This document shows positions 11,538 to 28,496 of a stretch of 64,000 nt of DNA, piece by piece. Made by a program: the position numbers and the translations under genes. The DNA lies in NCBI GenBank assembly GCA_044337105.1, contig JBIIOE010000005.1, positions 84 to 64,083 of the forward strand, in the 5' to 3' direction. The notes beneath the pieces are model-generated. The model saw only the letters and a list, made by a program, of their open reading frames with translations. It did no database searches and was not told the DNA's origin. Source of the DNA: Bdellovibrionota bacterium. GTDB taxonomy: Bacteria; Bdellovibrionota_C; UBA2361; OMII01. Each line of letters opens with the position of its first letter. Within the stretch, counting starts at the first letter, position 1.

Positions 11538-11921
11538 ATGAAAAGGCAGACTAAACAGCGATCCGTCGTGCAGCGCTTGTTCGAACAAGCGCAACGCCCC
11601 CTCAGCCCTATCGAGGTATTCGAGCAGGCTCGCACCGAGCTACAGGCGATAAGCTTGGCCACTATTTATCGAACTCTTAAAACGCTGCTTGACGAAGGCG
11701 CGCTCGTGCCAGTTTCTCTTCCCGGGCTGCCCGATCGGTATGAGACGCGCGGATGCGCCGATCATCACCACCACCATTTCCACTGCGACGATTGCGGACG
11801 TGTGTTCGACGTCCCAGGGTGCGGCTTGCATTCCAGTGTTCACATTCCATCAGGCTTCTCGGTCAAGAGGCATGAGGTCGTACTGTACGGCGCATGTCGT
11901 GAATGCTCCGCCCTCAATTAA
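11538..11921 (+). CDS. Fur-family transcriptional regulator, probably Zur
   Basis: ISLATIYRTLKTL HTH; HHHHHFHCDDCG and GACREC zinc motifs; directly upstream of a ZnuD-like receptor. Confidence 0.9.
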   Translation: MKRQTKQRSVVQRLFEQAQRPLSPIEVFEQARTELQAISLATIYRTLKTLLDEGALVPVSLPGLPDRYETRGCADHHHHHFHCDDCGRVFDVPGCGLHSSVHIPSGFSVKRHEVVLYGACRECSALN

Positions 11922-11952
11922 CCCAACTGCTTTTTTCAGGTGTCATATGTGT

Positions 11953-13995
11953 ATGAAGATGAAGTTGTATTGCAGCCTATTACTGTCACTCACTGCCGTA
12001 GTATGTTCGTTCGACTACGCACGTGCCGAAGATGCGCCGCAGCCCTCCAGCCCCGACTACAAGCTGGATAAATTGGTAATCGAGTCGTCGCCACTCCAGC
12101 AGACCTTGTTCGAATCGGCTCAACCTGTTTCTGTGCTCTCGGGAAGCGACCTAGATCTCAAGGCACAGACCTCTCTAGGCGACACACTCGCCATGGAACC
12201 AGGTGTCTCCTCGTCGTCGTTCGGACCTGCAGCCGGTCGTCCCGTCATTCGTGGACTTGGTGGCGATCGTATACGCGTACTCGAGAACGGGGTTGGAACA
12301 CAAGACGTATCGAACAGCAGCCCCGATCACGCAGTCACGATCGAACCTTCGTTAGTTGAGAAGATAGAGGTTATCCGCGGACCAGCCTCACTCCTATACG
12401 GAACGAGCGCAGTGGGCGGAATCGTCAACGTCTTCGACAATCGCATCCCTGAAAAGCTTCCTGAGGCCCCTATCGCCGGAAGCGTGGAGGTGCGAGGAGA
12501 GAGCGTGAACTCGGGAAGGAGCGCTCTCATGGACGTGACAGCTCCAGCCGGACCATTTGCCTTCCACGTCGATGGATTCAAGCGACGCACCGATGACATC
12601 CGCATTCCCGGATTTGCGCGCACGGAATCGCTTCAAGAGGACGCCGAGATCGATTATCCCGAGCCGCGCGGAAAGATCCCTTTTAGCGGCAGCGAATCTG
12701 ACAGCTTAACCTTAGGGTCCTCGTACATCTTCGACAAAGGTTTCATCGGGGCGTCAGTCAGCGAACTCAACACCAACTATGGAGTGCCAAACGGAGAGGA
12801 AGACATCAGCATCGATGCCAGAAGGCGGCGTGTCGATGTGCGCGGCGCACTGCGGGACAAAGACTCTTTCATAGAGTCCATTTCGACCCGTATGGGGATC
12901 ACCGATTACGAGCACACGGAATTCGAAGGCTCTGAAGTAGGAACACGCTTCGATCAGAACGCCTTTGAGGGACGAATCGACATGAAACACGCCTCCGTTG
13001 CGTCGATTACAGGCTCGTGGGGTCTTCAGCTTCAAACCAATGAAATCCAAGCCGTCGGAGAAGAGGCGTACCAGCCACCCACAGATAGCAAGATATACTC
13101 GCTATTCGCACTGGAGGAAGCAGCAGTATCAGACTCCCTCACCTTACAGCTCGGCGGTCGCTTCGATTGGTCTGATCTCGACACTTCAGGTTTCGACATT
13201 GGCGCAGAGGATGACAGCAGTCGCTTCTTTACGACCTTCAGTCAGTCAGCCGGTGCAGTATGGGAGCTTTCGAACCCCTATTCGCTGGCGTTGTCAGTTG
13301 CACACTCGGAGCGCGCGCCGAATGGCCAGGAGCTTTTCACCAATGGTCCACACGTCGCCACGGGATCATTCGAGGTTGGCGATCCAGATCTGGACATCGA
13401 GCGCTCTCTTGGCACTGACCTGACTCTGCGTAAGACGAGCGGCACGATTCGCGGATCGATCGGCGGATTCTACAACCACTTCTGGAACTACATCGCCCTC
13501 AATCCCACAGGGGGCGTAGAGGACGACCTGCCAGTGTACGGGTATGAGGCCGTAAACGCGGACTTCGTCGGCTTCGAGTCGCAGGTAGCTGTCTTTGTCG
13601 TGGACAAGCCTGGAGAGGAGATCTCCTTCGACATCCAACCAGACTACGTGCACGCCAAGGATCGCGACAACAACACCAATTTACCTCGTATTCCGCCTTT
13701 CCGTTTGAGGACAGGCGTCAACTACTTCCATGAGGATCTTTTTCGAGCGCGCTTCGAGGTTCAGCAGGTCTTTGCGCAGCGCGAGACAGCCGATTTCGAA
13801 ACATCGACCGACGGCTACACCATGATGAATGCGTATCTCAGCAAGGAGATTCCGATGGGAGATCACGTACTGGAGGTATTTCTGCGCGGTAGCAATCTCC
13901 TGAACGAGAAAGCTCGAAACCACGTCTCTTTCATCAAAGATGTGGCACCACTACCAGGAGCCTCTGCACTCCTCGGCGTGCGCATTCGATTCTGA
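11953..13995 (+). CDS. TonB-dependent receptor, ZnuD-like (zinc uptake)
   Basis: Signal peptide; plug SFGPAAGRPVIRGL..SPDHAV; IEVIRGPASLLYG; C-terminal Phe; true start near 11947-11959, not 11689. Confidence 0.9.
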   Translation: MKMKLYCSLLLSLTAVVCSFDYARAEDAPQPSSPDYKLDKLVIESSPLQQTLFESAQPVSVLSGSDLDLKAQTSLGDTLAMEPGVSSSSFGPAAGRPVIRGLGGDRIRVLENGVGTQDVSNSSPDHAVTIEPSLVEKIEVIRGPASLLYGTSAVGGIVNVFDNRIPEKLPEAPIAGSVEVRGESVNSGRSALMDVTAPAGPFAFHVDGFKRRTDDIRIPGFARTESLQEDAEIDYPEPRGKIPFSGSESDSLTLGSSYIFDKGFIGASVSELNTNYGVPNGEEDISIDARRRRVDVRGALRDKDSFIESISTRMGITDYEHTEFEGSEVGTRFDQNAFEGRIDMKHASVASITGSWGLQLQTNEIQAVGEEAYQPPTDSKIYSLFALEEAAVSDSLTLQLGGRFDWSDLDTSGFDIGAEDDSSRFFTTFSQSAGAVWELSNPYSLALSVAHSERAPNGQELFTNGPHVATGSFEVGDPDLDIERSLGTDLTLRKTSGTIRGSIGGFYNHFWNYIALNPTGGVEDDLPVYGYEAVNADFVGFESQVAVFVVDKPGEEISFDIQPDYVHAKDRDNNTNLPRIPPFRLRTGVNYFHEDLFRARFEVQQVFAQRETADFETSTDGYTMMNAYLSKEIPMGDHVLEVFLRGSNLLNEKARNHVSFIKDVAPLPGASALLGVRIRF

Positions 13996-14115: not shown

Positions 14116-14568
14116 TTACCCAACACCGAGTAATTCGACCTCGAATATGAGGGTTGCATTGGGAGGAATTACTCCGCCTGCGCCCCGCGAGCCGTATCCA
14201 AGGCCCGGTGGAATCATGAGAGTGCGAACGCCACCGACCTTCATCCCAGCGACGCCTTCATCCCATCCGCTGATGACCTGGCGTGCGCCGAGGTTGAAGT
14301 CGAAGGGCTCCCCACGATCTTTTGAACTGTCAAACTTCGCGCCTGGCGTGCCGTCCTTATCGAGCCACCCAGTGTAGTGCACGGTCACACTCTGTCCTGG
14401 CTTTGCTTCGGCACCGGTGCCTACCTTGTCGTCTCGGTATTTGAGTCCCGACGCTGTTGTCACGACCTCAGCCTGTGTCTTCTCCATCTTCTTATCCTCT
14501 CCGAATCCGGTAACGGGAGCCCCTAAAACGACCCCTACCGCCACTATTATTGCCAGATATCTTTTCAT
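14116..14568 (-). CDS. FKBP-type peptidyl-prolyl cis-trans isomerase, exported
   Basis: [30 protein letters not shown] and [13 protein letters not shown]; signal peptide from ATG 14568. Confidence 0.95.
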
Positions 14569-14886
14569 ATCTTCCTTTATGGTTTCCCCAAGTACCTTTG
14601 CACGGAGCCGCGACATGTCGCAGCGTCGGCTGCCTCTCGTTACCCCATGCGGTACCGCGCATAGTCCACCGACCTGCACTTTCATTCAACTATCGAAAAA
14701 CAGGCTACGTTATTTCAACAGATTACCCGCGCCGCGTCGCCTCCAACGGGTCCCCAGTGGCATATTGTACGCAGGTGAATCAAAATCGGCCTGTAGTGCA
14801 AAAGTAGTGATTTGCCTCGGTTCACTCATGGTCATTTTCGAGCCAACCGGTTATTATATCGAAAGAAATTTTAGTGTGAGCGTTTT

Positions 14887-15444
14887 ATGATGCAGAGTCC
14901 TGACCAGTCCGGTTTTCTGACGACCAACCTCGAGAGCGCCCTTGCCTGGGCTCGGAAGTATTCATTGTTTTCGTATCCGTTCGTCACGGCCTGCTGCGGG
15001 ATGGAGTTCATGTCAGTGAACTGCTCCCACTACGATACAGACCGCTTCGGGGCAGCACTTCCGCGATTCACACCAAGACAATCAGATCTCTTGTGGGTCG
15101 TAGGAACGGTCAACCACAAACTTGCGCCGGTTCTATTGCGAGTTTACGAACAGATGGCTGAACCAAAGTGGGTGGTAGCGTTTGGAGCATGCGCGTCCTC
15201 CGGCGGCTTCTACGACAACTACACGACGGTAGCAGGCATAGACAAAATCATCCCTGTCGATATGTACATCCCTGGATGCCCACCTCGTCCGGAGACGGTG
15301 TTAGACGCGCTCATGAAGTTACAGAGCGACATTCAACGTTCGCGGCAGCAGGTAGTTCCATCTCAAGGCGGAAAACAGTATCACCCCGATCTACCACCCC
15401 TTCTGGGAGAGCCTATCGATACGAGACTTACAAAGCCGGTGTAG
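14887..15444 (+). CDS. nuoB: NADH-quinone oxidoreductase subunit B (stand-alone)
   Basis: TACCGMEF, PRQSDL, FGACASSGG and PGCPPRPE N2-cluster motifs. Confidence 0.92.
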   Translation: MMQSPDQSGFLTTNLESALAWARKYSLFSYPFVTACCGMEFMSVNCSHYDTDRFGAALPRFTPRQSDLLWVVGTVNHKLAPVLLRVYEQMAEPKWVVAFGACASSGGFYDNYTTVAGIDKIIPVDMYIPGCPPRPETVLDALMKLQSDIQRSRQQVVPSQGGKQYHPDLPPLLGEPIDTRLTKPV

Positions 15445-17035
15445 GAAGACCAACCTCGGAGTCCTCTGAGCGAACCCAGGACAGAAGCGACGAGATCTCA
15501 ACCGGCTTACAAAAGAACTCTCGGGCCCCATGAGCGGCACACCGATAGAGCAGGTCTTCAGAACCATCTCCGCTCGCAACGGCAACCCGCGCCTTGATTC
15601 CACGCTCCTTGAAGAGCTCAATTAACTTCAGCGCACCTCCGTCGGGCATCGTAGCGTCACACAAGACGGCCTTGGTTGATGCGGACGCTGCCATCGTTGC
15701 CGCCTCTGTAATCGACGTCACACCACGAACGGTAAGACCACTCGTCGCAAGCACCCTTTGCAGCGCCGCCACCTGTTGCCCGTCGTCATCCACGACGATC
15801 AGATCGATCGATTCGGTCGCTACACCTACCGCCGCGCGATCGTCGTTGTGCGGTGTGGCCGTGCAGAGATCAGGCCCCCTGGGAACAACTATCTCAATCG
15901 TCGTCCCTCGCTCGGTCGAGGAGGCGACACACAGATCTCCCGCGTACCGCTCTACCCGCCGCTTGCTCGAGACCAACCCCATACCCCATCCTGACGCGCT
16001 CGAAACAGTCCTACAGTTCGGCTCACGCAGCTCTGCCAAAATGCGGGGATCGATCCCTGGACCTGTGTCACTCACCACAACAACCACTCGATTGCGGTCA
16101 CACCGCAGAGACACATTCACATCCCCAGCGCGCGAGTACCGAATGGCATTCCCGAGAATGTTCGACAAGATGCGCTCGAACTCGATGTCCGGAATACGCG
16201 CTCCGACTCCCCGCAGCGCACTATCGACGACGATAGAGACACCCTCTTGCGTCCCCTCTGCCCTACTTCGTGCAACTACCCTTTTGACTACCTCCTCTGC
16301 ATCGCACACACCAAGATGAAAGCGATCTCTTTCCACCTGTGCCGGAGACAGAGACGCAAGCAGGCTCCCCATATACGAGAGCTCCTGTGACACGCTCGAG
16401 CGAATCGCAGCATCACTCTCCGCAGCCGCAGGAAACTGCGTCAGCAGATACTTCAGCCCGCCGACTGGCGCTCGAACATCGTGCAAAACAGCGGCCAGCT
16501 CCCTCTCTCTCTCTTCTAATTCAGCTATCCTCGACGAGGCACCTAAAATGGCCGATACGATACCTTCGTATTGCTCGAACCACGTTGCGAGATCACTCGC
16601 CACCTCTCGAACTTCCTCCACAATTCGCGAATGCGCTACCGCGTACAGCCCCACCCAGAGAAAACATTCCCGACGAGCTGAAATCCCAGTCGGCGTAGCT
16701 ATCCTACACGACACCGAGCTACGCGGCGCTGCATCGATGAAACTCGCTCCGTCTAGCGCGTGATCTTTCACCATTAATACGCCTTCACGTCGCTCATGCT
16801 CGAGCACGAGCCCCTTGAGGGTATCGGAAGGCAACGCCATGTGCTCGCGCGCATTCCCCACCACCAGTCGTCCATCGGACGAGCGCAGGATAAGCGCCAA
16901 GTCCGCCGTACCTTCGGGCGCCAGATACAGAAGCTCCCACGCAATACGGCGCAGAAGCATCAGAACAGACGGCTCTCGCTGTGTCGCAAAGAACGTTAGT
17001 GCTCGAGCACACGCGACAGCACACCCCTTGCTCAT
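15428..17035 (-). CDS. Hybrid sensor histidine kinase-response regulator
   Basis: H-box LHDVRAP, N-box NILGNAIRYS, G1 DTGPGI, G2 GWGMGL; receiver VVDDD..CDATMP..KP; ATG 17035 overlaps upstream TGA. Confidence 0.88.
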   Translation of the reverse strand: MSKGCAVACARALTFFATQREPSVLMLLRRIAWELLYLAPEGTADLALILRSSDGRLVVGNAREHMALPSDTLKGLVLEHERREGVLMVKDHALDGASFIDAAPRSSVSCRIATPTGISARRECFLWVGLYAVAHSRIVEEVREVASDLATWFEQYEGIVSAILGASSRIAELEERERELAAVLHDVRAPVGGLKYLLTQFPAAAESDAAIRSSVSQELSYMGSLLASLSPAQVERDRFHLGVCDAEEVVKRVVARSRAEGTQEGVSIVVDSALRGVGARIPDIEFERILSNILGNAIRYSRAGDVNVSLRCDRNRVVVVVSDTGPGIDPRILAELREPNCRTVSSASGWGMGLVSSKRRVERYAGDLCVASSTERGTTIEIVVPRGPDLCTATPHNDDRAAVGVATESIDLIVVDDDGQQVAALQRVLATSGLTVRGVTSITEAATMAASASTKAVLCDATMPDGGALKLIELFKERGIKARVAVASGDGSEDLLYRCAAHGAREFFCKPVEISSLLSWVRSEDSEVGLPTPAL

Positions 17036-18408
17036 GCTGCCTCTTGAAGAGCCACTCGTTGGGTCAAACGTCGAATGTGCGCGCACAACACACGCGGATC
17101 CTTGGCCTTCGAAACGAAGGCATCGGCGCCACGCGCCAGGAGAGCCAGTTCGACATCAACATCTTCATCCGAGGTGAGCATGATGAAAGGCACCTCATTG
17201 AGTCGACTCTGACCTCTGACCTTGTCGAGGAGCTCCTGTCCATTCATGAGCGGCATGTGAAGATCGCACACGATAGCTCGGGGTCGGAACTCTCCAGAAT
17301 TCGCCAGCCGCTCCCATGCAACACTTCCGTTCGGAGCGAAGTGCGGCTCGAACCCATCGCGCTCGAGAAGTCGCTCGAGCACTCGACAGAACATCGGATT
17401 GTCATCAACGACGAGAATCGGCACACGCCCTCCCTGCGCACTCTCGCTCACCGCTGGTGCGGTGGAGGCACTCAGAGCGTCTCCTGTAGATACCGGCACA
17501 GGTAGCATCTGTCGGGCTTCAGGGCTCGAGAGACCCTCCCTAAGCGAATCTTGAGCGGAGGCGAGCACTGAGGTAGGCGCATAGAACGACACGCCTGCGG
17601 ACTCAGACTCTCCCCATGAAAGCCTTACGTTACCTGTCGCCCCGAGGGAGCGAACAAGAACCTCTCCTCGCTTCGAGGAGAGAAAACAGGAACCTTGGTA
17701 GCTGCTCAAGAAACTCGAAATATCCGCTATGACATCGCGCCGAATATTACCCACGCCACACCTACCGTCTGCGGTGGTGAACTGATATCGGGCTCTGCCA
17801 TCCGATGAAACTATCTCAACGCTACGGGCACCATGAGTCGCAGCTTCGTGCACGATCGTCTCAATTAGGGACTCACTCAGCTTGGTCCGCTGCTCAAGGG
17901 CACTTTGGTCCTGAAGAGCCTCGTCTTCGATAACCCGTCGTTCCGCCGCATCGAGAGCGCGAGCTATGTCGGACCAAGCCGCCACACCGATCGGAGCACG
18001 TCCGTCGTACGTCGACAACGATCTAATCTCAGCCGGATCAACCGCAATGTAGCGAACCACCACGCCGTTCTCCATCACCGGAACCGCCCCAACCTTGCGG
18101 AGAGCCGTCAACAGAGCGCGAGCCTCTTGAGGCTCCGTCGGCAATTCAGGTATCGGGACGCGCTCGTGATACTCTACTTTCAGCTCCTGCGCGGCCGCGA
18201 TAGTGAACTCCTTTTCGCTGACACCGACCCAAGCAGCAGCGAGCACGCCCCATTGGCGCCTGTCGTTGCTGGACGCAACGACCTCGCGAAGAACAGATCG
18301 GGGAACCAACCTATCCAGCGCTCTAACCAGAGACGGCAACGGCGCGGGGCCTTTTTTTCGCCGACATTTAGCTACCACGTCACTCACGATTCTTTTGATT
18401 GCCATCAT
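17032..18408 (-). CDS. GspE/PilB N-terminal-like domains fused to a C-terminal receiver; no ATPase domain
   Basis: SEKEFTIAAAQELKVEY..GAVPV..IAVDP (T2SSE_N-like); IETIVHEAATHGARSVEI (N2D-like); receiver VVDDN..CDLHMP..FVSK; no Walker A. Confidence 0.7.
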   Translation of the reverse strand: MMAIKRIVSDVVAKCRRKKGPAPLPSLVRALDRLVPRSVLREVVASSNDRRQWGVLAAAWVGVSEKEFTIAAAQELKVEYHERVPIPELPTEPQEARALLTALRKVGAVPVMENGVVVRYIAVDPAEIRSLSTYDGRAPIGVAAWSDIARALDAAERRVIEDEALQDQSALEQRTKLSESLIETIVHEAATHGARSVEIVSSDGRARYQFTTADGRCGVGNIRRDVIADISSFLSSYQGSCFLSSKRGEVLVRSLGATGNVRLSWGESESAGVSFYAPTSVLASAQDSLREGLSSPEARQMLPVPVSTGDALSASTAPAVSESAQGGRVPILVVDDNPMFCRVLERLLERDGFEPHFAPNGSVAWERLANSGEFRPRAIVCDLHMPLMNGQELLDKVRGQSRLNEVPFIMLTSDEDVDVELALLARGADAFVSKAKDPRVLCAHIRRLTQRVALQEAA

Positions 18409-19040
18409 AACGACACCTCTTCTCTCGGTAGGGAGATATGTACGAACTGAACCATAGATTCCTCACCGACACTTGGCACACCTGTCACCTTTCCGGCCAC
18501 GGCCCCTCCTATCAACACAGCGTACTCCATGTAGCGGGGGGTCCCACCTGAAGCGAACAAGGGATATCCAGAAGCGTGCGCCCGATACTTAGAAAGGTTC
18601 TCCTCGAGAGACATCCGCGCGGACAACGCTCCCCTACCCTCACACACCTCTCTTTCACGCGACGTGAGGCTCCCTGTAGTCTGATTGACTCGAAACACCC
18701 AGAAGCACGCCACCGCCGAAACATCTGAAATTCCACCTACTAGGCTCTTTTCACCGTCAACCATCATCCGATCTCGAATCGACCGAACAACCGATCGCAG
18801 CGCGTCACTGTTGACGTCGACCCGAGCAGTCGCTCCTTCTACACGATAGCGGAGCGCAGGAGCTGAATGCTCGCGTACCGCCGAAACCGGTATATGCTGC
18901 ATTCGGATGTGATCATGCACGACTCCGACTACACCAGCAGCAAGCAACACCACCGGCAGCAAGACTACCGACCACACTGCGATCTCAAGATAGGCGAGGC
19001 CTCGCTCAGCGCAGTTCTTTACACGATACAAACGCCTCAT
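18405..19040 (-). CDS. TadE-like minor pilin
   Basis: RG|LAYLEIAVWSVVLLP prepilin site with E at +5 and a hydrophobic helix. Confidence 0.7.
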   Translation of the reverse strand: MRRLYRVKNCAERGLAYLEIAVWSVVLLPVVLLAAGVVGVVHDHIRMQHIPVSAVREHSAPALRYRVEGATARVDVNSDALRSVVRSIRDRMMVDGEKSLVGGISDVSAVACFWVFRVNQTTGSLTSREREVCEGRGALSARMSLEENLSKYRAHASGYPLFASGGTPRYMEYAVLIGGAVAGKVTGVPSVGEESMVQFVHISLPREEVSL

Positions 19041-19049
19041 TCTCTCCCA

Positions 19050-20126
19050 CTACCTCGATATATGCACATCGTTACCAAGGTGTCCGAGGGATGCCGCAAG
19101 CAACCTCGGATCACTAAGCTGGCTGGATTGAAGTAAAACCTCTCTCCAGCGAACGCCGTAGAAGCCAGGTCTGTACGCTGGTCTCTGATAGCTGCTTGAA
19201 GCATTGACGCCGAAATGCACCATGTTCAAGAAGAGCTGATTATTCCGACTCATGAAATCCAGAACATCGATCGCGGAGTGAATATATCCGTCACCCGCTC
19301 GCCCCCCTCGCACGACCGTCACGAGACCGACCCGCTCGGTTGGGGTTATGGTGCCGCGCGTCAAAATGAGTTGCTCAATCTCGGCCGCGAGCTCCGTCGG
19401 CTGAGGGAGCGCGCGCGCTATGCCTGGCACATGCTCAAACTGACGAGTCGAAACAACAGACACCCCATCACACCCTTGAAGCTCCTCGGCCATCTCGAGG
19501 ACATCAACCGCGCCGCGTGTCCCGGGGGTAAAACCGACCCTCACCGAGTCAATCCCGACCGATTCAAGCGCTGATATCAACGTTCCAACAAATCGTTTCA
19601 CGTCTTGTAGCTCTGGATCCGAGCACTCTTGACCGACGGCTCTGACAGTTCGGTCGAACACGATCAAGGCAGACGAAGAAAACCTTCGAGAGCGCACCTC
19701 GACATCAATCGGGATTGCCGGAAGCCGACTACGGAGAAAATCCCCGCACAGATCAATCAGAACTCCCTGATAGTTAGCCTTGAGAGAGAGGACGCTCGCA
19801 TTCGGCCTGACGGCCGCTTGTATTTCCGGCGATTCAAGAAACGAAGCGAGCTTACCCAATTTACTCTTGATGGAGCCCTTCGCCTCGGACGGAGTATAGC
19901 TGCGCGCAAGCGCCCAATGAGCCTCGTCATCCAAAAGCGCTCGGATGCCCTCTCGTACACTGAAGAATGTCGCTATATCGATGGATATTACCAAGAGGAT
20001 GAGCACGAAGGGCAAAAAGAGAATGGTAAAGACCAGTGAGGCTGCCCCTCGCTCTTGAAGCAACCACGATCCTCCATCTTCCAAATACACTCTTGTCTGC
20101 ACTGCGTTATTGCTCCACTGCGGCAT
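19050..20126 (-). CDS. TadG-like pilin/tip protein with a possible vWA-like domain
   Basis: ERG|AASLVFTILFLPFVLILLVISID N-terminus; ALIVFDRT beta strand; position in tad operon. Confidence 0.65.
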   Translation of the reverse strand: MPQWSNNAVQTRVYLEDGGSWLLQERGAASLVFTILFLPFVLILLVISIDIATFFSVREGIRALLDDEAHWALARSYTPSEAKGSIKSKLGKLASFLESPEIQAAVRPNASVLSLKANYQGVLIDLCGDFLRSRLPAIPIDVEVRSRRFSSSALIVFDRTVRAVGQECSDPELQDVKRFVGTLISALESVGIDSVRVGFTPGTRGAVDVLEMAEELQGCDGVSVVSTRQFEHVPGIARALPQPTELAAEIEQLILTRGTITPTERVGLVTVVRGGRAGDGYIHSAIDVLDFMSRNNQLFLNMVHFGVNASSSYQRPAYRPGFYGVRWREVLLQSSQLSDPRLLAASLGHLGNDVHISR

Positions 20127-20904
20127 TGGACACCTTTGACGTCAGGGATCCAACTTGAATAAGGGGTATAGTCAGAAAGCACACAATCAGGCCGGCAAAG
20201 GTCAGAACTAGGGGTAGCACAGCCTTGACCGGAAGTTTTGCTATCTCCTCTTCGACGCTCTCCTGGTAGTACGTTTGGGTCGCATCACTAAGCTCCTTGA
20301 GTGGGCGGACGAGCTCTCCACCTTGCTGATAGGCCAAGGCGAGATGGACAAAACAGTGCTTCACCGCTGGGCAGGGCACTCCTCGAGATATCGAGCGCAG
20401 CGAGTCCGCCACTGGCAGCCCCGCCTCGGCCAAGTCAACCACCTCGGACAGAAGAGCAGAGACGGGATCAGTGACACGAGATGACGCCTCACGCAGAGCG
20501 GGTACGATATCCAGCCCCGATCCCACCGCCATGACGATACGCTCCATGGTCATGGGGAGATTCAATTCCATACTCTTGACGAGTCGTGCGGCACGTCGCT
20601 CCTTACGACGCCGATACCACAGCTCTCCCGCGAGCGCTCCCAAAAGACCAAACAGTACCTCCTGAGGTCCGACGACAACCCCAAGTGCGCGACGCAGGAG
20701 AAGCATGCAGAGTGCTCCGACGATCCAAGCTACAACTCTGGGCCACTCATAGCATCGATTACCCGATACCTCGCCGCTGTGAGCTTGCGGGGTGGCGTCT
20801 TCGTCAGAGATCAAGGTGGAAGCCACTCTATTGCATCGAGTCTTGTCGGAGCCAACGACAAAAAGCAGCAAGCCAACCGCAAAAATGAGTAAGCTCCACA
20901 TCAT
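20107..20904 (-). CDS. tadC: TadC (T2SS F-family) platform protein
   Basis: LPMTMERIVMAVGSGL..L..LKELSD..EEEIAKLPVKAVLPL pattern. Confidence 0.8.
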   Translation of the reverse strand: MMWSLLIFAVGLLLFVVGSDKTRCNRVASTLISDEDATPQAHSGEVSGNRCYEWPRVVAWIVGALCMLLLRRALGVVVGPQEVLFGLLGALAGELWYRRRKERRAARLVKSMELNLPMTMERIVMAVGSGLDIVPALREASSRVTDPVSALLSEVVDLAEAGLPVADSLRSISRGVPCPAVKHCFVHLALAYQQGGELVRPLKELSDATQTYYQESVEEEIAKLPVKAVLPLVLTFAGLIVCFLTIPLIQVGSLTSKVSNAAVEQ

Positions 20905-20911
20905 AATTCGC

Positions 20912-21745
20912 CTACACCGATGTCTCTCGACCGAGCGACATCATCCACCCGACCCCTATCGCTATGAATACACCACCGGAGATCAGGAGCTTGCTTCCGA
21001 GAGAGTGCTGAAGAACCAATTGAATCCCATCAGGATTGGTTACCACCTGCATGAGCGCGATCAGCGCTGCACACAGAGAGATTCCGACTGCCGACATTCG
21101 GTGCATCACGAGCGCCGCCCGCGTCTTGCGCCTGAAAGACTGGCGCTGACGAACAACGCGCGTGACGCGATGCAACGGCTCCGCGAGCGAGCTTCCGTGT
21201 TTTCTCGAGAGTCGAAGACATCCTTTGAACAGCTCAATGTCAGGCGTTGTTACTTCGCGAAACAGCCTGTCGATGACCTCGTCCTCATCGCCACCCGCTG
21301 CCAGTGTCCGATGAAATCGCTCCAGCTCGGCGGTGAGGGCCGAATCAGAAGGAAGAAACTCGCGGGCCTCGGACAGCGCAACAAGAGGGTCGATCCCCGC
21401 GCGAACCGATGAAGCAACCGAGGTCAAAAGAGCGGGCAGGTCGCGATCCACACTGCGAAGTCGCTGCCGCACCAATCGCCTTTCCTTGAGGAAAAGAAAG
21501 ACAACACCGGCTGTGACGCAGAGGATCCCCTTGAGAATCCCCAACCAAGCAGCGACTATCGAGCCGGCCAACAGCAGTAAGGCCAGTGTAGTCCTACGTT
21601 GGAGCATCGAGAGAAAAAAGCTGCGAGTTTCATCGACAGTAGGCTCGTCTGACGAGGAGCTCAGAGCATTTCTGACTCCCACTTCCGCCATGGGCTTTAC
21701 GAGCTGCTCAACGATTCTGTCTCTCCCTCGCAATGACGCAAACAT
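20912..21745 (-). CDS. tadB: TadB (T2SS F-family) platform protein
   Basis: DLPALLTSVASSVRAGID..HGSSLAEPL pattern; follows the CpaF gene. Confidence 0.82.
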   Translation of the reverse strand: MFASLRGRDRIVEQLVKPMAEVGVRNALSSSSDEPTVDETRSFFLSMLQRRTTLALLLLAGSIVAAWLGILKGILCVTAGVVFLFLKERRLVRQRLRSVDRDLPALLTSVASSVRAGIDPLVALSEAREFLPSDSALTAELERFHRTLAAGGDEDEVIDRLFREVTTPDIELFKGCLRLSRKHGSSLAEPLHRVTRVVRQRQSFRRKTRAALVMHRMSAVGISLCAALIALMQVVTNPDGIQLVLQHSLGSKLLISGGVFIAIGVGWMMSLGRETSV

Positions 21746-21751
21746 CTCGTC

Positions 21752-23101
21752 CTACCTCCCCAGAGACTGCGCGGCTTCACGATAGGAAACCTCCAATGGA
21801 AGCTCGAGCACATCGGGAATCTTGGAGAACGAGAACGGTGCGCACTCCTTTTCGAGCTTTTCACGGAAGGCACTCACACGATTGACGAGACTCCACTGAG
21901 GAGTTCCATGCGTTGCCTTGTATGCGAATATTTCGCGCTGACGCAGTACTCCATCGGCAACAGGGCCAAGCTCTCGCACCTCCATGATGCGACGAACGCC
22001 GGTGACCTTACAGAGATCGACCACAACCACCACCTGTACGGCTGTGACCACTTGTGCACTCAAAAGCGTCTTGTCGGCGTTACGCTGTGCGCGCGCTAAG
22101 AAAAGCTCGAGACGGGTAACTGCATCGAGCGCACTCCTGCCATGCAGCGTCGAAAGCCCTGGATGACCCGATGCACACACATCGACGAAGGCTTCGGCAG
22201 CCTCCGCATCGCGAATCTCTCCGAAGACAATTCGATTCATCGCCATACGCATACCCGCACGAATGCATTGTGCCGGAGCAACGCGTCCCGCTCCTTCGAG
22301 ATTAGCTTCTCGTGTCGTGACATAGCGCACATGAGGGTGATCAAGTCGAATTTCGGGTGTATCCTCGATGACCAGAACCGATTCATCGTGCGGGATAGCC
22401 CCCGCCAGGGCTCGCGCCAGCGTAGTCTTACCGGTGCCCACTTCACCTACGACCAGGAGTGTGCGCCCTATGCTGACAAGACCTCTTAGGTATTCGAAGA
22501 TCGGCCTGGGAGCCAACCCTACCGCCACGAGATCGTCGAGCGAGACTGAGGTGTAGCGATTGATACGAATGGTCAAATACGGACCTTCGTCGCACAGCAC
22601 TTTATGGACGGCATGAACACGTACGAGCGCCCCGATCATTCCGTCTGCTATGGGCTGCTTGGTAGAATACGAGGTTCCGGCGCGATGAAGGAGTCGCTCG
22701 ACAAACGCTTCGTAAGAGCGCTGATCCGCGAACCTGATCTGCGTTCGGATATTTCTCCTTCCTTGCTGGATCGAAACCTTTCCGAAACTGGATACGATGA
22801 TATCCGAAATCCGCACGTCGTCTATGAGCGGTTGTAAGACTCCAAAGGAGAACCAATCTCCTTCTAAATGGGTCAGTATCTCGTCGCGCTCGAGACTCGA
22901 GAGCTCGACACCGAGCCGGGTCGCCGCCTCCAATACCAATGCGCCAGCATCACGATATCCGCCGGGGAAATTTTGCTGTTGGGAAGCTTTAGAGTTCTGA
23001 CGACGCGCCTCCTCGAGCACATGCGCGAGCACCGGAGGTAGCGTAGGCGTCTCGCGCGAAGAGACCACCCTATCTTTGACTGGCACTTCTCCCATCACCA
23101 C
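21752..23101 (-). CDS. cpaF: CpaF/TadA pilus assembly ATPase
   Basis: Walker A GEVGTGKTT, IEDTPEI, RMAMNRIVFGEIR and STLHG; start may be GTG near 23068. Confidence 0.93.
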   Translation of the reverse strand: MVMGEVPVKDRVVSSRETPTLPPVLAHVLEEARRQNSKASQQQNFPGGYRDAGALVLEAATRLGVELSSLERDEILTHLEGDWFSFGVLQPLIDDVRISDIIVSSFGKVSIQQGRRNIRTQIRFADQRSYEAFVERLLHRAGTSYSTKQPIADGMIGALVRVHAVHKVLCDEGPYLTIRINRYTSVSLDDLVAVGLAPRPIFEYLRGLVSIGRTLLVVGEVGTGKTTLARALAGAIPHDESVLVIEDTPEIRLDHPHVRYVTTREANLEGAGRVAPAQCIRAGMRMAMNRIVFGEIRDAEAAEAFVDVCASGHPGLSTLHGRSALDAVTRLELFLARAQRNADKTLLSAQVVTAVQVVVVVDLCKVTGVRRIMEVRELGPVADGVLRQREIFAYKATHGTPQWSLVNRVSAFREKLEKECAPFSFSKIPDVLELPLEVSYREAAQSLGR

Positions 23102-23984
23102 CTTCTCTCAACAAAAATCCGGCTGGAATGCCTTCCGTCGGAACCCAGGCTCCGTCAACCAGTGCGAAGCTCTTCTTTTCCGGCCCACTACCCACAGAAA
23201 CCACTCCGCTTACCCGGGCACCGCTGGAGGGCTTGCGATCATGAGACAAGGAATCGGCCGAAAACTGGGTCGTTCTCCAGGTATCCGGATCACGGGCACT
23301 TCGCAGCGCGAATGCTATTTTTCCGAGCGCTACCGCTGTATTAATCGCGAGACACTGGTCCTGCGTAACTAGCAGGGTCACAGTGCTCGGGATCGGGGCC
23401 TGCGTCGATTCGTCACCAGGCGAGAGAGAGCGTTCGGCAGATATGACTTTGACCTGCTCAGCAACGACTGTGGTTCGGGATGGTTGCACCAGAAGGACGT
23501 CCACGATCGATCCGCTGCGAACCCATCCTTCGACAGCCGCAGTGGCATCGACACGCACAGTCATCGCACGCATCCCGGGCGGGATTCTTCCTACTATTGG
23601 GTTGGAGACCTCGTCTGGAGACCCCAGATTCGACGTTACTATGGGCAAACCTCCCGGAAGTGCCACCAAAGCAACCGCGTCGCGCCACGTACCTAAATCA
23701 CGAACCGCCGCTTCCGGCAATTGATGCTCAGGAAAGGGCTCCATCCGCACCGGAATGTCCCTCACATGAGTGCCAGCAGGTACCGGCCCCTGTGGGACCG
23801 GTATGTGCACGACGTTGAACTCCGGGACAAATGCTCGTTGCCGCTCAACTACGGGAACAGAGACATATGCCCGTCCGAGCTGATACGCTCCGAGCAACAT
23901 CGCAACACACAGCGAAAGCAGCCCGAGCGAGCGCGCCCCAGCAGGAGTGCGACGGGGCCGCACTGTCGCAGATCGAACAACCAC
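23070..23984 (-). CDS. cpaB: CpaB/RcpC Flp pilus assembly protein
   Basis: N-terminal TM, SAF-like region, IPPGMRAMTVRVD..GWVRSGSIVDVL; GTG 23984 follows GGAG. Confidence 0.88.
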   Translation of the reverse strand: MVVRSATVRPRRTPAGARSLGLLSLCVAMLLGAYQLGRAYVSVPVVERQRAFVPEFNVVHIPVPQGPVPAGTHVRDIPVRMEPFPEHQLPEAAVRDLGTWRDAVALVALPGGLPIVTSNLGSPDEVSNPIVGRIPPGMRAMTVRVDATAAVEGWVRSGSIVDVLLVQPSRTTVVAEQVKVISAERSLSPGDESTQAPIPSTVTLLVTQDQCLAINTAVALGKIAFALRSARDPDTWRTTQFSADSLSHDRKPSSGARVSGVVSVGSGPEKKSFALVDGAWVPTEGIPAGFLLREGGDGRSASQR

Positions 23985-23994
23985 ACCTACTCCG

Positions 23995-24174
23995 TTAGTT
24001 TGATATGCCTGCGGAGCGCCGCTGAGCCCATTGCCCAACGGCGGCGAGCAAGTCACTCAGATTCCCACCCAAGGCATTGAGCGCTGTCCATAAAATTCCA
24101 GCTATTATCGCTGCCCCTGCGCAGTATTCCAGCAAAGTGTAGCCTTTCTCACTCGTTCTATTCTTCTTGTTCAT
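23995..24174 (-). CDS. flp: Flp (type IVc) major pilin
   Basis: KG|YTLLEY with E+5/Y+6 Flp motif and a hydrophobic helix; about 59 aa. Confidence 0.88.
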   Translation of the reverse strand: MNKKNRTSEKGYTLLEYCAGAAIIAGILWTALNALGGNLSDLLAAVGQWAQRRSAGISN

Positions 24175-24194
24175 GCAGCGCATCCTTTCATCTA

Positions 24195-25556
24195 TCAACC
24201 ACTTACTACTGCCTTGGATACGAGCGCATCCTCGACATCTCCTTGTTCAAAAGACTGCTCGGTTCTGCCTGCGGGAAGGAGTGCAGTCGAGCCAAAATCC
24301 TGCCCGCTCGAAACCACCAGCTTACCCGCTGTTTTAGGCGCTCTTTTCTTCGGCATAATGCGTCGAGCCGACGATAGCAGCGCCATGAGCACCTTACCGA
24401 CTCCTCGCTGGGCGTTCTCCTCACCATCGTCGAGGAGCGGCTGAATACTTCGCTTGAGAGCAGGAAAGGCTGTACGCCCGCTGCACGCCCAGCGGGCCCC
24501 CTGCGAGGAGTAAGGGAGCACAAATGTACGAGTTGGAATATCGTTGTGCACCAATACCTGTTGACGAACCACGCAGAGCGACGCTTGAGCTTTACTGTTC
24601 TGGTTAATCACTGAAGTCAGACGTGCGATAGGTCTCAGATACCCACCTATCAACGAGACCGCTTGCCTATTGGCAAATGCTCCTGCCGGATCTCTGTTTG
24701 CGACCAAAACCACTTCGTCGGTGCATTGATACAGTGCTTGTCTACACCCGCCTACGAGCGGCGCTGCGTCAACTACCACGGCCTGGAATTGAGATTGAAG
24801 AACCTCCAATACTGCCACGAAGGTCCGACAAGCTTGCGAGGAGGAGAGAAGTGCTTCATCTGTCGCTACCGGAGGAGGGACACATTTGAAGCGCGACTCG
24901 TCTCGCCATACGGGAAACGCACACTCAGCTACGGTCTCAGCCGTCACTACTCGCTGACAATCAAGTAGCAGCCGCAAAGGCTCGTTCACATAGGGGCGAA
25001 CCTGTAGGCAGCGGGTCAGGTCCTGCGAGAAGATATCCCCGTCCACAACACAAACATTTTTCCCGGCATCGAGCCACGCCTCGGCAAGCGCGGCCGTGAC
25101 CAAGGTCGCCCCTACTCCTCCTCGCGCAGCATCCACTACGATGAGCCGTCCCTTCTCAGCTGAAGCGACTCGCCGCTTCAAGAGGACCAAGCGCCGAAAG
25201 AATTCCTCACTCGAGGCCGTATCCATGAGGACGTCGTCTACACCGAGGCGGCCTAACTGCTCAATCATTCCGAAGGAAAACGTGGCGCTATCGAGCACGC
25301 ACAGCACCACCTTGCCTGGCAACTGCTGTCGAATCAGATTAACGTAAGCGGCATCGGCTGAGATGAGCTCGGGGCCTATGAGACAAACATCAAGATCGCC
25401 GTGGAAACGGACTTCCTGCGGAGCAAGGAGGTGAAGCGATACCCGAGGAAGAGAAAAATGCCGCGCTTCGGGCTGGGACCAGGTCCAGCGTTCGACAAGC
25501 TGAGCCAATCTTCTGCGGCCCTCTGCACTCAAGTCGATCAATCCAAGCTCGATCAT
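24195..25556 (-). CDS. cpaE: CpaE/TadZ-like ParA/MinD ATPase with N-terminal pseudo-receiver
   Basis: Deviant Walker A ARGGVGAT, VCVVDGD, AVVVDAAP; first gene of the tad operon. Confidence 0.8.
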   Translation of the reverse strand: MIELGLIDLSAEGRRRLAQLVERWTWSQPEARHFSLPRVSLHLLAPQEVRFHGDLDVCLIGPELISADAAYVNLIRQQLPGKVVLCVLDSATFSFGMIEQLGRLGVDDVLMDTASSEEFFRRLVLLKRRVASAEKGRLIVVDAARGGVGATLVTAALAEAWLDAGKNVCVVDGDIFSQDLTRCLQVRPYVNEPLRLLLDCQRVVTAETVAECAFPVWRDESRFKCVPPPVATDEALLSSSQACRTFVAVLEVLQSQFQAVVVDAAPLVGGCRQALYQCTDEVVLVANRDPAGAFANRQAVSLIGGYLRPIARLTSVINQNSKAQASLCVVRQQVLVHNDIPTRTFVLPYSSQGARWACSGRTAFPALKRSIQPLLDDGEENAQRGVGKVLMALLSSARRIMPKKRAPKTAGKLVVSSGQDFGSTALLPAGRTEQSFEQGDVEDALVSKAVVSG

Positions 25557-26578: not shown

Positions 26579-26672
26579 GACAGGGTGCGCGAGTCTCTCA
26601 CTGTTGCTATTGTGGCGCACAGTAGGAAGGGGCTTTGCCTCGCTTCCCAAGAAATCCTATACGGCGGAAATC

Positions 26673-27407
26673 ATGCCAAGAATGTTCAGAATCCCCTATT
26701 TTTCCTTCCACCACTCAGCGCACGTCTTGACGGTAGCTATCGTTGTACTCTCGGTCGTGCAAGGGCTCTTGATGCAGCAAGGCGCCTACGCTTTTTTCTT
26801 TATTCCGCTCGCAGTCATTTACGACTTGCACGTATGGCGGCCTTTTACCGCTCTGTTCTTAGCACCCAACCCATTAGAGATTATTTTCGGCGGATTGATC
26901 ATCTACAGCGTCGGAGGAAACCTCGAGAGCTTGTGGGGCAGGAAGAGATTTCTCCGCATCGCTCTGGGCATACCACTGGCAGCTGAAATCGTCGTTCTAG
27001 GCATAGCCCTTCTCTTCCCCTCAATATTTAGCGCCTCTGCCTACGCAGGAGCGCGCCAGATTATAACGACCATCTGGATAATGTTTGGTCTTACATCTCA
27101 CTTCCAGGGACAGCGCCTCAATTTCTGGGGCACCCCGCTCAAGGGCAATACGTTTGCCTTGATAGGACTGGGCTTCGTTCTTCTCGGCGCCGTTTTTAAT
27201 GGGCTCGTTCCAGTCCTTCCAGAACTCATTACCGCTGGGCTGTGCTATGGCTATATGTACAGAGGAGAACTTCCAGACGTACGACGTCGAGCAGAGCTTG
27301 CGTATTACAACTGGAAGCTTGCTCGGCTAAAGAGCAAGAAAGGACTTCGCCTCGTCAAAGGCAAGCGAAACGGTAACGATCAAGAGCCCGGGCCTCACAT
27401 ACACTAA
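26673..27407 (+). CDS. Rhomboid-fold membrane protein, apparently lacking catalytic residues
   Basis: WRPFTALF, GGNLESLWGRKRFL rhomboid scaffold; YAGARQ replaces the GxSG motif; no catalytic His in the TM6 region. Confidence 0.7.
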   Translation: MPRMFRIPYFSFHHSAHVLTVAIVVLSVVQGLLMQQGAYAFFFIPLAVIYDLHVWRPFTALFLAPNPLEIIFGGLIIYSVGGNLESLWGRKRFLRIALGIPLAAEIVVLGIALLFPSIFSASAYAGARQIITTIWIMFGLTSHFQGQRLNFWGTPLKGNTFALIGLGFVLLGAVFNGLVPVLPELITAGLCYGYMYRGELPDVRRRAELAYYNWKLARLKSKKGLRLVKGKRNGNDQEPGPHIH

Positions 27408-27515: not shown

Positions 27516-28496
27516 TTACCCAACCAACGACAACACCATGAATATTCCCATCAACGCACAGGAGATGCCTGCACTCACCAAAACGACAGCCGGCATTCCT
27601 TTGATATCGATCTTGGGATTGAGGTCAAAGCGGTGGGCGTGCGGCTTCATCACAGAAACGAAACCGATCGTCATCAAGACAGCCCCCAAAAACAACATAC
27701 CAGTATACGCTTGCTTAGCACCTTGAGACATCGCGTCGAGCAACTCGTTCGCTGTGTGACGTCCTCTTTGGATGAACACCTCACCGGCAGGACGTGAGCC
27801 CACCAGGGACATTTCGTCTACCTGTCGAGCGATCACAGTGTAGTCGCCGGCAGGAAGAGACTCGTACCACACACGCATGTCGCCCAGAGAAACGCCCTCC
27901 ATGCCTGGCTCTCTTTTTATAAGCAGCTTGTTGTCTTTGATTTGGTGCGATGAGTCCTTGAGCATCTCGGGCGCAATCCGCACCGGAGATAACGCCTCGA
28001 TGACATCCACAATCCGAGCGCCATCGAACTCTCCAAAGAACATCGTAGGGGCACGCTTGTCAAAGGGCTGCACCTTCATGACCGGATTTTCGTGCCCTTC
28101 CGGTGCTCGGAAGCGAAAGAAATCGACCTCTCGTGGAACCCACTCCAGCGAATACGCAGCAGGATCAGAAGGCTTATCCTCTAGCTCAACATTCTCGACC
28201 CATTGGAACATCTCGACGTGCCGCACGAGACGAATCGCTGGCAACGGGTGCAAAAATTCATCCTCCAAAGGAACATCCCCTCGTAGAGCTCCCGAGGCTA
28301 CGACGACCTTGCCGTTATTGCCTGCATTCGGTCGAGACGCATCGACCTCGACAGCGCCTTGAAGGGCGTCCATGAGGGACGAACGCGTAGTCGACCCGCC
28401 AAGGCTACTGGCCCACATCATCACAAACCCGCAGGCCACCGTAAAAATGCCCAAAGCGGAATTCGTCTTCTTTCCGAGATCCTTGATCTTGACCAT
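27516..28496 (-). CDS. TMEM43/DUF1625-family protein
   Basis: NNGKVVVASG..LEDEF..IRLVRHVEMFQWVE signature; one N-terminal and two C-terminal TMs. Confidence 0.75.
   Translation of the reverse strand: MVKIKDLGKKTNSALGIFTVACGFVMMWASSLGGSTTRSSLMDALQGAVEVDASRPNAGNNGKVVVASGALRGDVPLEDEFLHPLPAIRLVRHVEMFQWVENVELEDKPSDPAAYSLEWVPREVDFFRFRAPEGHENPVMKVQPFDKRAPTMFFGEFDGARIVDVIEALSPVRIAPEMLKDSSHQIKDNKLLIKREPGMEGVSLGDMRVWYESLPAGDYTVIARQVDEMSLVGSRPAGEVFIQRGRHTANELLDAMSQGAKQAYTGMLFLGAVLMTIGFVSVMKPHAHRFDLNPKIDIKGMPAVVLVSAGISCALMGIFMVLSLVG

Follow-up and report, generated by a model that had tools for sequence, protein, structure and literature searches.

Response regulators can act directly on type IV pilus motors, as do PilG and PilH and the PATAN-REC proteins PixE and PixG, which bind PilB1 in Synechocystis. 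In Tad systems, the specific cytoplasmic hub is TadZ/CpaE, which joins a ParA/MinD ATPase domain to an atypical, non-phosphorylatable receiver. Control of the Tad motor is an open question, with one ATPase serving both extension and retraction; PMC6920026 describes this single ATPase, CpaF, as driving both directions. In the motors of type IVa pili (T4aP) and type II secretion systems (T2SS), N1 of GspE docks on GspL (4PHT, 2BH1), PilB is believed to touch the stator or the platform with its N1 domain (N1D), and the N2 domain (N2D) packs on the C-terminal domain (CTD) of the adjacent subunit (reviewed in PMC11656802). Proteins of the form 'MshEN - REC', in which an MshEN domain is followed by a receiver (REC), have been catalogued, for example Glov_2262 of Geobacter lovleyi, as have proteins of the form 'Pkinase - MshEN - UNK - REC' (Wang et al. 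2016, PMC5013675, Suppl. Table 4), and Bd2402 of Bdellovibrio bacteriovorus ('REC - MshEN_N - UNK') binds cyclic di-GMP (c-di-GMP) (PMC5013675). Here we describe a gene, which we call NREC, in a 64,000-nucleotide stretch of a Bdellovibrionota bacterium genome (contig JBIIOE010000005.1, positions 84 to 64,083; the whole stretch is referred to as the window). NREC (17032..18408, minus strand) is a single open reading frame (ORF) of 458 codons for a response regulator whose output is predicted to be a PilB/GspE-like N1-N2 module. The reading that we favor, with evenly balanced confidence, makes NREC a conserved protein devoted to a Tad-type (type IVc) pilus machine, in which it would work as an accessory subunit or adaptor switched by phosphorylation, in an uncultured lineage of predatory-type Bdellovibrionota.

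Results

The predicted domains of NREC, all on the minus strand, follow one another in the order of a motor N-terminus. A poorly conserved basic helix (MMAIKRIVSDVVAKCRRKKG...; residues 1–24, 18337..18408) precedes a four-helix bundle equivalent to MshEN_N (residues 25–78, 18175..18336) and an alpha/beta subdomain equivalent to MshEN_C/T2SSE_N1 (residues 79–145, 17974..18174; ..LRKVGAvPv..G..v.fiAVDPaE..). A long connecting helix (residues 146–191, 17836..17973) then continues into the first helix of an N2-like domain with a beta3-alpha-beta3 arrangement, of the type of the PilB/GspE N2D (residues 192–266, 17611..17835). No ATPase CTD comes after it. A Ser/Ala/Pro-rich disordered tether of variable length (residues 267–328, 17425..17610) leads to the receiver with its full phospho-acceptor pocket (residues 329–450, 17059..17424), and the chain closes with the tail ..LQEAA-COOH (residues 451–458 plus the stop codon, 17032..17058).

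The original prediction, made from the DNA letters, had described the protein as lacking an ATPase, and this description held: Pfam and a motif scan of the protein revealed no Walker A, no P-loop domain and no T2SSE (PF00437) match, and the chain ends in REC. NREC has no DNA-binding domain, and public records name proteins of the family only 'response regulator' or 'CheY-like'. The public gene call of NREC (P0001, 404 aa) starts at V55, so that the N-terminal helix is lost and the invariant DRRQW motif is split. Both the homologues and the ATGA shared with the gene upstream place the true start at the ATG at 18408.

The fold of NREC was predicted with AlphaFold2 (AF2) from a 56-sequence alignment, and a separate model of residues 1–275 was used for the N-terminal Foldseek search. 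Residues 27–265 had a predicted local distance difference test score (pLDDT) above 90, and the 1–275 model alone had a mean pLDDT of 92.1 and a predicted TM-score (pTM) of 0.73. The bundle was modeled as helices 27–34, 37–46, 50–61 and 65–76, followed by an alpha/beta unit (93–142), a 47-residue helix (145–191) and a beta3-alpha-beta3 domain (196–265). When the 1–275 model was compared with the PDB, the top 19 matches were all N-terminal parts (N1 or N2) of T2SS and type IV pilus ATPases. The best were nine c-di-GMP-bound PilF GSPII-B entries (e.g. 8pdk, 8pfa, 9glg; E 1.1e-4 to 4.2e-4, probability 1.0), with 22% identity across 138 columns. Vibrio vulnificus GspE (4pht; full length including N1E, solved with GspL) was matched across 187–189 columns, and XpsE-N (2d28) also matched. 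Matches to the N2 of EpsE, PilF and PilB (1p9r, 5oiu, 5zfr, 5tsh, 5it5, 6olj, 8dze, 4ksr) covered about 100–114 columns at a root-mean-square deviation (rmsd) of 3–6 A, with probability 0.96–1.0 and E 0.04–0.14.

Sequence searches gave a much fainter signal. Pfam yielded no MshEN (PF05157), GspE N1E or T2SSE match to NREC at E<=1, and NCBIfam likewise nothing relevant; at E<=10, MshEN was touched by one of 18 family N-termini (E=0.22), and one remote family member reached E=0.039, under the cutoff. No GspE or PilB chain was retrieved from the PDB by phmmer and hmmsearch with the NREC protein and two family profiles. Alignment with hhalign to Escherichia coli GspE, or to a 30-sequence GspE N-terminal profile, was weak (E 0.011–0.09). 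The register was identical in all five runs, however, placing NREC 178–212 (SESLIETIVHEAATHGARSVEIVSSDGRARYQFTT, which contains the segment SESLIETIVHEAATHGARSVEIV..RYQF singled out earlier) on the start of GspE N2 (..IRFRI), and one run extended collinearly backwards across N1. By fold and domain order, we accepted residues 25–266 as a modeled N1 (MshEN/GSPII) plus N2 module, of the sort present in PilB/GspE-type ATPases and missing from Tad motors (CpaF). The T2SSE_N-like and N2D-like segments of the original prediction were thus supported by the AF2/Foldseek fold, with N1 and then N2 in collinear order, and not by the sequence models (Pfam and PDB profiles). A separate candidate, in which the N-terminal domain is a duplicate of the N-domain of the operon's own CpaF, was rejected (hhalign E=0.69).

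The four-helix bundle is the most conserved region of NREC. Within the close subfamily, mean pairwise identity was 77% in the bundle (25–78) and 65% in the receiver, and 47–51% in the N1 alpha/beta subdomain, the long helix and N2. Among 56 homologues, D49-R50-R51-Q52-W53, A58, W60 and G62-V63-S64-E65 of the bundle were invariant, as were D124, P125 and W145 of the N1 alpha/beta subdomain. Throughout the sampled wide family, D49 and R51 of the bundle and Y208 and G220 of the N2-like domain remained invariant; W53 and G54 did not. The DRRQW patch lies at the N-terminus of helix 3, the position of the second RLG motif in MshEN, where NREC carries DRRQWG in place of RLG, so that the motif is degenerate as had been noted. 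This conservation predicts that the patch is a ligand or partner site.

For c-di-GMP binding, we applied the motif given by Wang et al. 2016 (PMC5013675), two tandem 24-residue RLGxx(L)(V/I)xxG(I/F)(L/V)xxxxLxxxLxxQ stretches, in strict or relaxed form. Neither form was matched by any of the 56 close or 99 wider family members, and canonical c-di-GMP binding is therefore not predicted. That NREC is mainly a small-molecule receptor, whose bundle binds a second messenger of the nucleotide type (c-di-GMP, non-canonically, or another ligand) and integrates this signal with phosphorylation to control the Tad machine, is in our estimate unlikely. The c-di-GMP-bound state of the closest structural matches, the PilF GSPII-B entries, speaks for such a role, as does the position of the invariant DRRQWG patch at the second RLG in the most conserved part of the protein; imperfect motifs may also still bind, for example in Bd2402 and Bd1509/Bd1596 (Wang et al. 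2016, PMC5013675). However, even the relaxed motif was missed by every member, W53 and G54 are not kept in the wide family, and XpsE/GspE-type N domains with degenerate motifs fail to bind c-di-GMP (PMC5013675). A motif scan of the window found no GGDEF, EAL, HD-GYP or PilZ gene, which also argues against it. A ligand-receptor role of the bundle would be compatible with the favored phospho-switched subunit.

The receiver matched Pfam Response_reg (PF00072) over residues 331–446 with E=1.6e-19 and 70.6 bits against a gathering cutoff of 30.2. D335, D336, D382, T412/S413 and K434 were invariant in the 56 homologues, and D336, D382 and K434 were still invariant in the 99 wider relatives at about 25–50% identity. 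PDB sequence searches with NREC led to CheY-like receivers, and Foldseek with the full-length model returned receivers only, with TM-scores of 0.84–0.94 to CheY-like receivers. Judged from its residues, the receiver is phospho-competent; the above-cutoff PF00072 match and the invariant D335/D336/D382/T412/K434 bear out the intact receiver that the original prediction had seen. The low-complexity linker that it had placed ahead of the receiver was recovered as well, the roughly 55 residues 270–325 being disordered (pLDDT <50), rich in Ser and Ala and unconserved (13% mean pairwise identity). A possible origin of the NREC receiver as a paralogue of the receiver in the partner kinase was rejected, the two sharing just 21% identity.

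The C-terminus of NREC is always Ala-Ala or similar, with ..QEAA in close relatives and ..RRAA, ..SWAA or ..KKVA in remote ones (window 17032–17046, minus strand; loci L001–L034). Such an ending is reminiscent of ClpXP degrons, for example those of ssrA and CtrA. All four GCN codons occur for the terminal Ala across the family, and AA is retained where the stop is TAA or TAG and where the kinase start does not overlap. This codon and stop variation ruled out, for both alanines, that ..EAA merely reflects the Shine-Dalgarno sequence and the start codon that the kinase gene has in the overlap. Because GCN codons, stops and overlap types vary, the constraint acts on the amino acids and not just on the kinase start.

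A search with the N-terminal region alone retrieved >120 clusters (90% identity) of about 380–490 aa, in all of which PF00072 was the sole Pfam domain. An exhaustive HMMER scan of 1.84 billion representatives gave 176 clusters (50% identity) with E<1e-3, and the best 150 of these were 120–521 aa long; among the 26 weakest, a distant connection to genuine ATPases is conceivable. All ten remote members scanned had a C-terminal receiver and no ATPase; another remote member belongs to a cluster, P0150, that bears the name 'response regulator [Bdellovibrionales bacterium]'. When one genome per GTDB species was scanned, 27 NREC loci were found, in carriers that are all uncultured and mostly from freshwater. 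About half of these loci were titled Bdellovibrionota or Bdellovibrionales, and the rest bore broader titles (Pseudomonadota, Proteobacteria, delta-proteobacterium).

Every long-enough locus among the 27 had the gene order tadZ-flp-cpaB-cpaF-tadB-tadC-(pseudopilins)-NREC-hybrid kinase. Three remote members at roughly 25–30% identity (P0140, P0268 and P0219; E 1.7e-25, 5.7e-8 and 6.0e-14 to the family profile) lie in the same operon, six loci in all. The hybrid kinase follows NREC in all three, and in one of them the pseudopilins are absent and NREC comes directly after tadC. NREC and the kinase gene are coupled via ATGA, GTGA, TTGA or TAATG in all loci but two, which have a short intergenic gap.

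A functionless, decaying remnant of a PilB/GspE ATPase, produced by recent truncation or pseudogene formation, would explain the missing ATPase domain and nothing else, and we regard its probability as negligible. The same ~440-aa architecture recurs across the >120 and 176 clusters, every domain of NREC holds invariant motifs, synteny and translational coupling are conserved, and the terminal Ala-Ala is preserved through synonymous codon changes. Recent truncation in close relatives had been named beforehand as one of two findings that would undo the original prediction; the cluster counts, and the receiver without ATPase in all ten remote members, came out against it. As far as the sampled sequences tell, the NREC architecture is ancient and conserved, and not a recent truncation.

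In the window, NREC sits in a run of ten same-strand (minus) genes, 15428–25556. The first encodes a TadZ/CpaE-like ParA/MinD ATPase (24195..25556; ParA, AAA_31 and CpaE-type matches), followed by a Flp pilin (about 23995..24174; ..EKG/YTLLEY..), assigned by its G/xxxxEY motif and a Flp_Fap match at E=1.5e-4, under the gathering score. CpaB/RcpC (23070..24056) matched PF16976, and TIGR03177 above its cutoff; as listed, its ORF begins with the GTG 24056 and shares 62 nt (23995–24056, minus) with the 3' end of flp, and translation of cpaB probably begins further downstream. The CpaF/TadA motor ATPase (21752..23101; PF00437 E=1.3e-30, TIGR03819 E=6.7e-59) has no MshEN/N1 domain of its own. The platform proteins TadB (20912..21745) and TadC (20107..20904) both matched T2SSF (PF00482). 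Next come a TadG-like pseudopilin of 358 aa (19050..20126) with an N-terminal hydrophobic segment, whose same-position counterpart in locus L030 has a weak PF13400 (Tad) match, and a syntenic TadE-like pseudopilin of 211 aa (18405..19040) with the N-terminal motif ..ERG/LAYLEIAVWSVVLLPVV.. and no Pfam match; the two pseudopilin identities rest solely on the N-terminal motifs and the weak PF13400 match in L030. NREC and a hybrid histidine kinase (15428..17035) complete the run. The kinase has the H-box LHDVRAPV, HATPase_c and a C-terminal REC (Pfam/NCBIfam).

Translational coupling of NREC on both sides, claimed from the start, was evident at its two junctions. Both read ATGA: at the 5' junction, the stop codon of the gene upstream shares bases with the ATG at 18408, and at the 3' junction the TGA of NREC does so with the kinase ATG at 17035, ahead of which lies AAGAGG. 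Because of this overlap with the NREC stop, the kinase most likely starts at ATG 17035 and not at GTG 17086 of the ORF list. The kinase looks soluble in the close subfamily, where no transmembrane segment is apparent, and its N-terminal region (~190 aa) has no Pfam match. The kinases of remote members (L029 9580–11547, L030 11074–12879, L033 11572–13515) are 600–655 aa long, with a hydrophobic, probably transmembrane start and a recognizable HisKA.

A low-sensitivity tblastn search with E. coli GspD and GspO covered the 64-kb window and, to a distance of ~10 kb, 33 related loci, and found neither a secretin (RcpA/CpaC) nor a prepilin peptidase (TadV/CpaA); either these genes are located elsewhere in the genome, or a diderm here has an unusual machine. 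A promoter and terminator scan of the operon gave counts at chance level. Convergent with the kinase gene is a stand-alone NuoB-like gene (14887–15444, plus; CCGMEF...GCPP motifs), the two 3' ends overlapping by 17 nt (15428–15444), and remote locus L030 also has a PF01058 (Oxidored_q6) gene, downstream of the operon by a few kb. Other nearby genes, with no obvious link to the operon, encode a TonB-dependent receptor (11689–13995, plus), an exported FKBP-type PPIase (14116–14685, minus), a rhomboid-like protein (26604–27407, plus) and a TMEM43-family membrane protein (27516–28496, minus).

The original prediction had proposed a phosphorylation-controlled adaptor or decoy that would connect Tad with a T4aP or T2SS machine, or would report pilus state. 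The pilus-machine adaptor is reasonable, given the architecture, the co-translation with a pseudopilin and a kinase, and the conservation; the coupling to T4aP/T2SS found no support, since low-sensitivity searches of the window and 33 related loci showed no GspL-, PilM- or PilB-type partner and NREC is strictly co-inherited with Tad genes. We consider it very unlikely that the orphan N1-N2 module docks on a GspL-, PilM- or PilC-type platform of a separate T4aP/T2SS machine and there links the two systems or makes them inhibit each other, in the manner of an adaptor or decoy. Such docking would fit a fold that resembles the N domains of PilB/GspE and not that of CpaF, and GspE N1E is known to bind GspL (4PHT, 2BH1, cited in PMC11656802). 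However, neither the window nor the 27 genome loci showed a PilB/GspE-type Walker A signature beyond that of CpaF, and the low-sensitivity tblastn detected no homologue of GspL or GspD in either the window or the 33 related loci. Moreover, the Tad linkage is strict even at 25–30% identity, and NREC has diverged too far from PilB/GspE N domains for sequence detection, which argues against mimicry of a contemporary PilB.

Discussion

In the reading that we favor, a phospho-switched subunit of the Tad machine, the co-translated hybrid kinase would phosphorylate D382 of NREC, and this phosphorylation would alter the receiver's hold on, or its release of, the tethered N1-N2 module. Once freed, the module would dock on the cytoplasmic Tad motor complex through a protein-protein contact with TadZ, the CpaF ring or the TadB/TadC platform, and docking would gate pilus assembly or the extension/retraction state. 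The DRRQW..W.GVSE patch of the four-helix bundle may be the key interaction or ligand site. The proposed docking would parallel that of GspE N1 on GspL and the packing of N2 on the neighboring ATPase CTD. The Tad machine itself is the candidate target because the gene is strictly co-inherited with Tad genes, and its motor is the likely one because the CpaF of the operon has the T2SSE core only and docking roles of N1D and N2D are published.

Several points weigh against this reading. The MshEN/N2 homology is drawn from predicted structure, and sequence hidden Markov models and hhalign did not reach significance; the Foldseek TM-scores were themselves modest (0.46–0.51, target-normalised), with an rmsd of about 6 A for the N1 part. 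By hhalign, the module has no detectable similarity to the operon CpaF's own N-terminal domain. The target of N1-N2 is deduced purely from gene linkage. Finally, the hybrid kinase has a receiver of its own and no Hpt protein was seen, which makes the phosphotransfer route uncertain.

A more specific version of the mechanism is distinctly unlikely in our judgment: N1-N2 might be a phospho-regulated clutch for the single-ATPase motor that, on release through receiver phosphorylation, takes the usual N-domain surface on CpaF or TadB/TadC, sets which face or state of the CpaF ring engages the platform, and so turns a Tad-like machine with no secretin from extension to retraction or back, perhaps at prey contact in these Bdellovibrionota. 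The idea that CpaF inverts on the platform has been put forward elsewhere (bioRxiv 10.64898/2026.02.24.707734). If such a clutch existed, Tad pilus directionality would have its first regulator that is motor-derived and acts in trans. The less specific proposal that NREC docks on the Tad motor would, if true, provide a defined and genetically linked handle on Tad regulation (kinase, receiver and N1-N2), together with a natural experiment on the roles of N1 and N2 independent of ATP hydrolysis.

None of the papers searched describes NREC or any Tad-linked MshEN-REC regulator. The unprecedented architecture implied at the outset was nevertheless an overstatement, since 'MshEN - REC' proteins were already catalogued (PMC5013675, Suppl. 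Table 4). Like NREC, these proteins and Bd2402 combine an ATPase-less MshEN-type domain with a receiver in one chain, and they too occur in delta-proteobacteria-like lineages, including Bdellovibrio. Unlike NREC, whose family lacks the MshEN sequence motif, those proteins were found through that motif. NREC additionally carries an N2-like domain, the domain order of Bd2402 is the opposite, and for none of those proteins is there a report of a fixed place in a Tad operon, such as NREC has.

Compared with the MshEN/GSPII (T2SSE_N, PF05157) and N2 regions of MshE, PilB, PilF and GspE, NREC has the same predicted order of bundle, alpha/beta N1, connecting helix and N2, and a conserved patch at the position of the RLG ligand site. 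It differs in that the canonical c-di-GMP motif is absent, that the Pfam MshEN, GspE N1E and T2SSE models do not see it, and, relative to the PilB/GspE-type ATPases, that a receiver stands in place of the ATPase CTD and the gene belongs to a Tad operon instead of a T4aP or T2SS operon. If the modeled fold is right, the NREC family shows that MshEN-type domains exist beyond the reach of current Pfam models.

As in PilG/PilH, PixE/PixG and PprA-PprB of Pseudomonas aeruginosa, a two-component signal in NREC appears to be wired to a type IV filament machine, and the PprA-PprB genes, like those of NREC and its kinase, lie beside tad genes. PprB binds DNA as a regulator, whereas NREC has no domain for this, and PilG/PilH and PixE use other output surfaces, whereas the output domain of NREC itself seems to be derived from a motor N-terminus. 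TadZ/CpaE, encoded in the same operon, is likewise a cytoplasmic Tad accessory protein with a receiver-like domain, but it pairs an ATPase domain with an atypical receiver, and NREC has a canonical receiver and no NTPase. Set beside these systems, NREC resembles a PilB/GspE motor reduced to its regulatory and docking half, without the engine, that has come under two-component control and is fixed in the Tad operon across a lineage.

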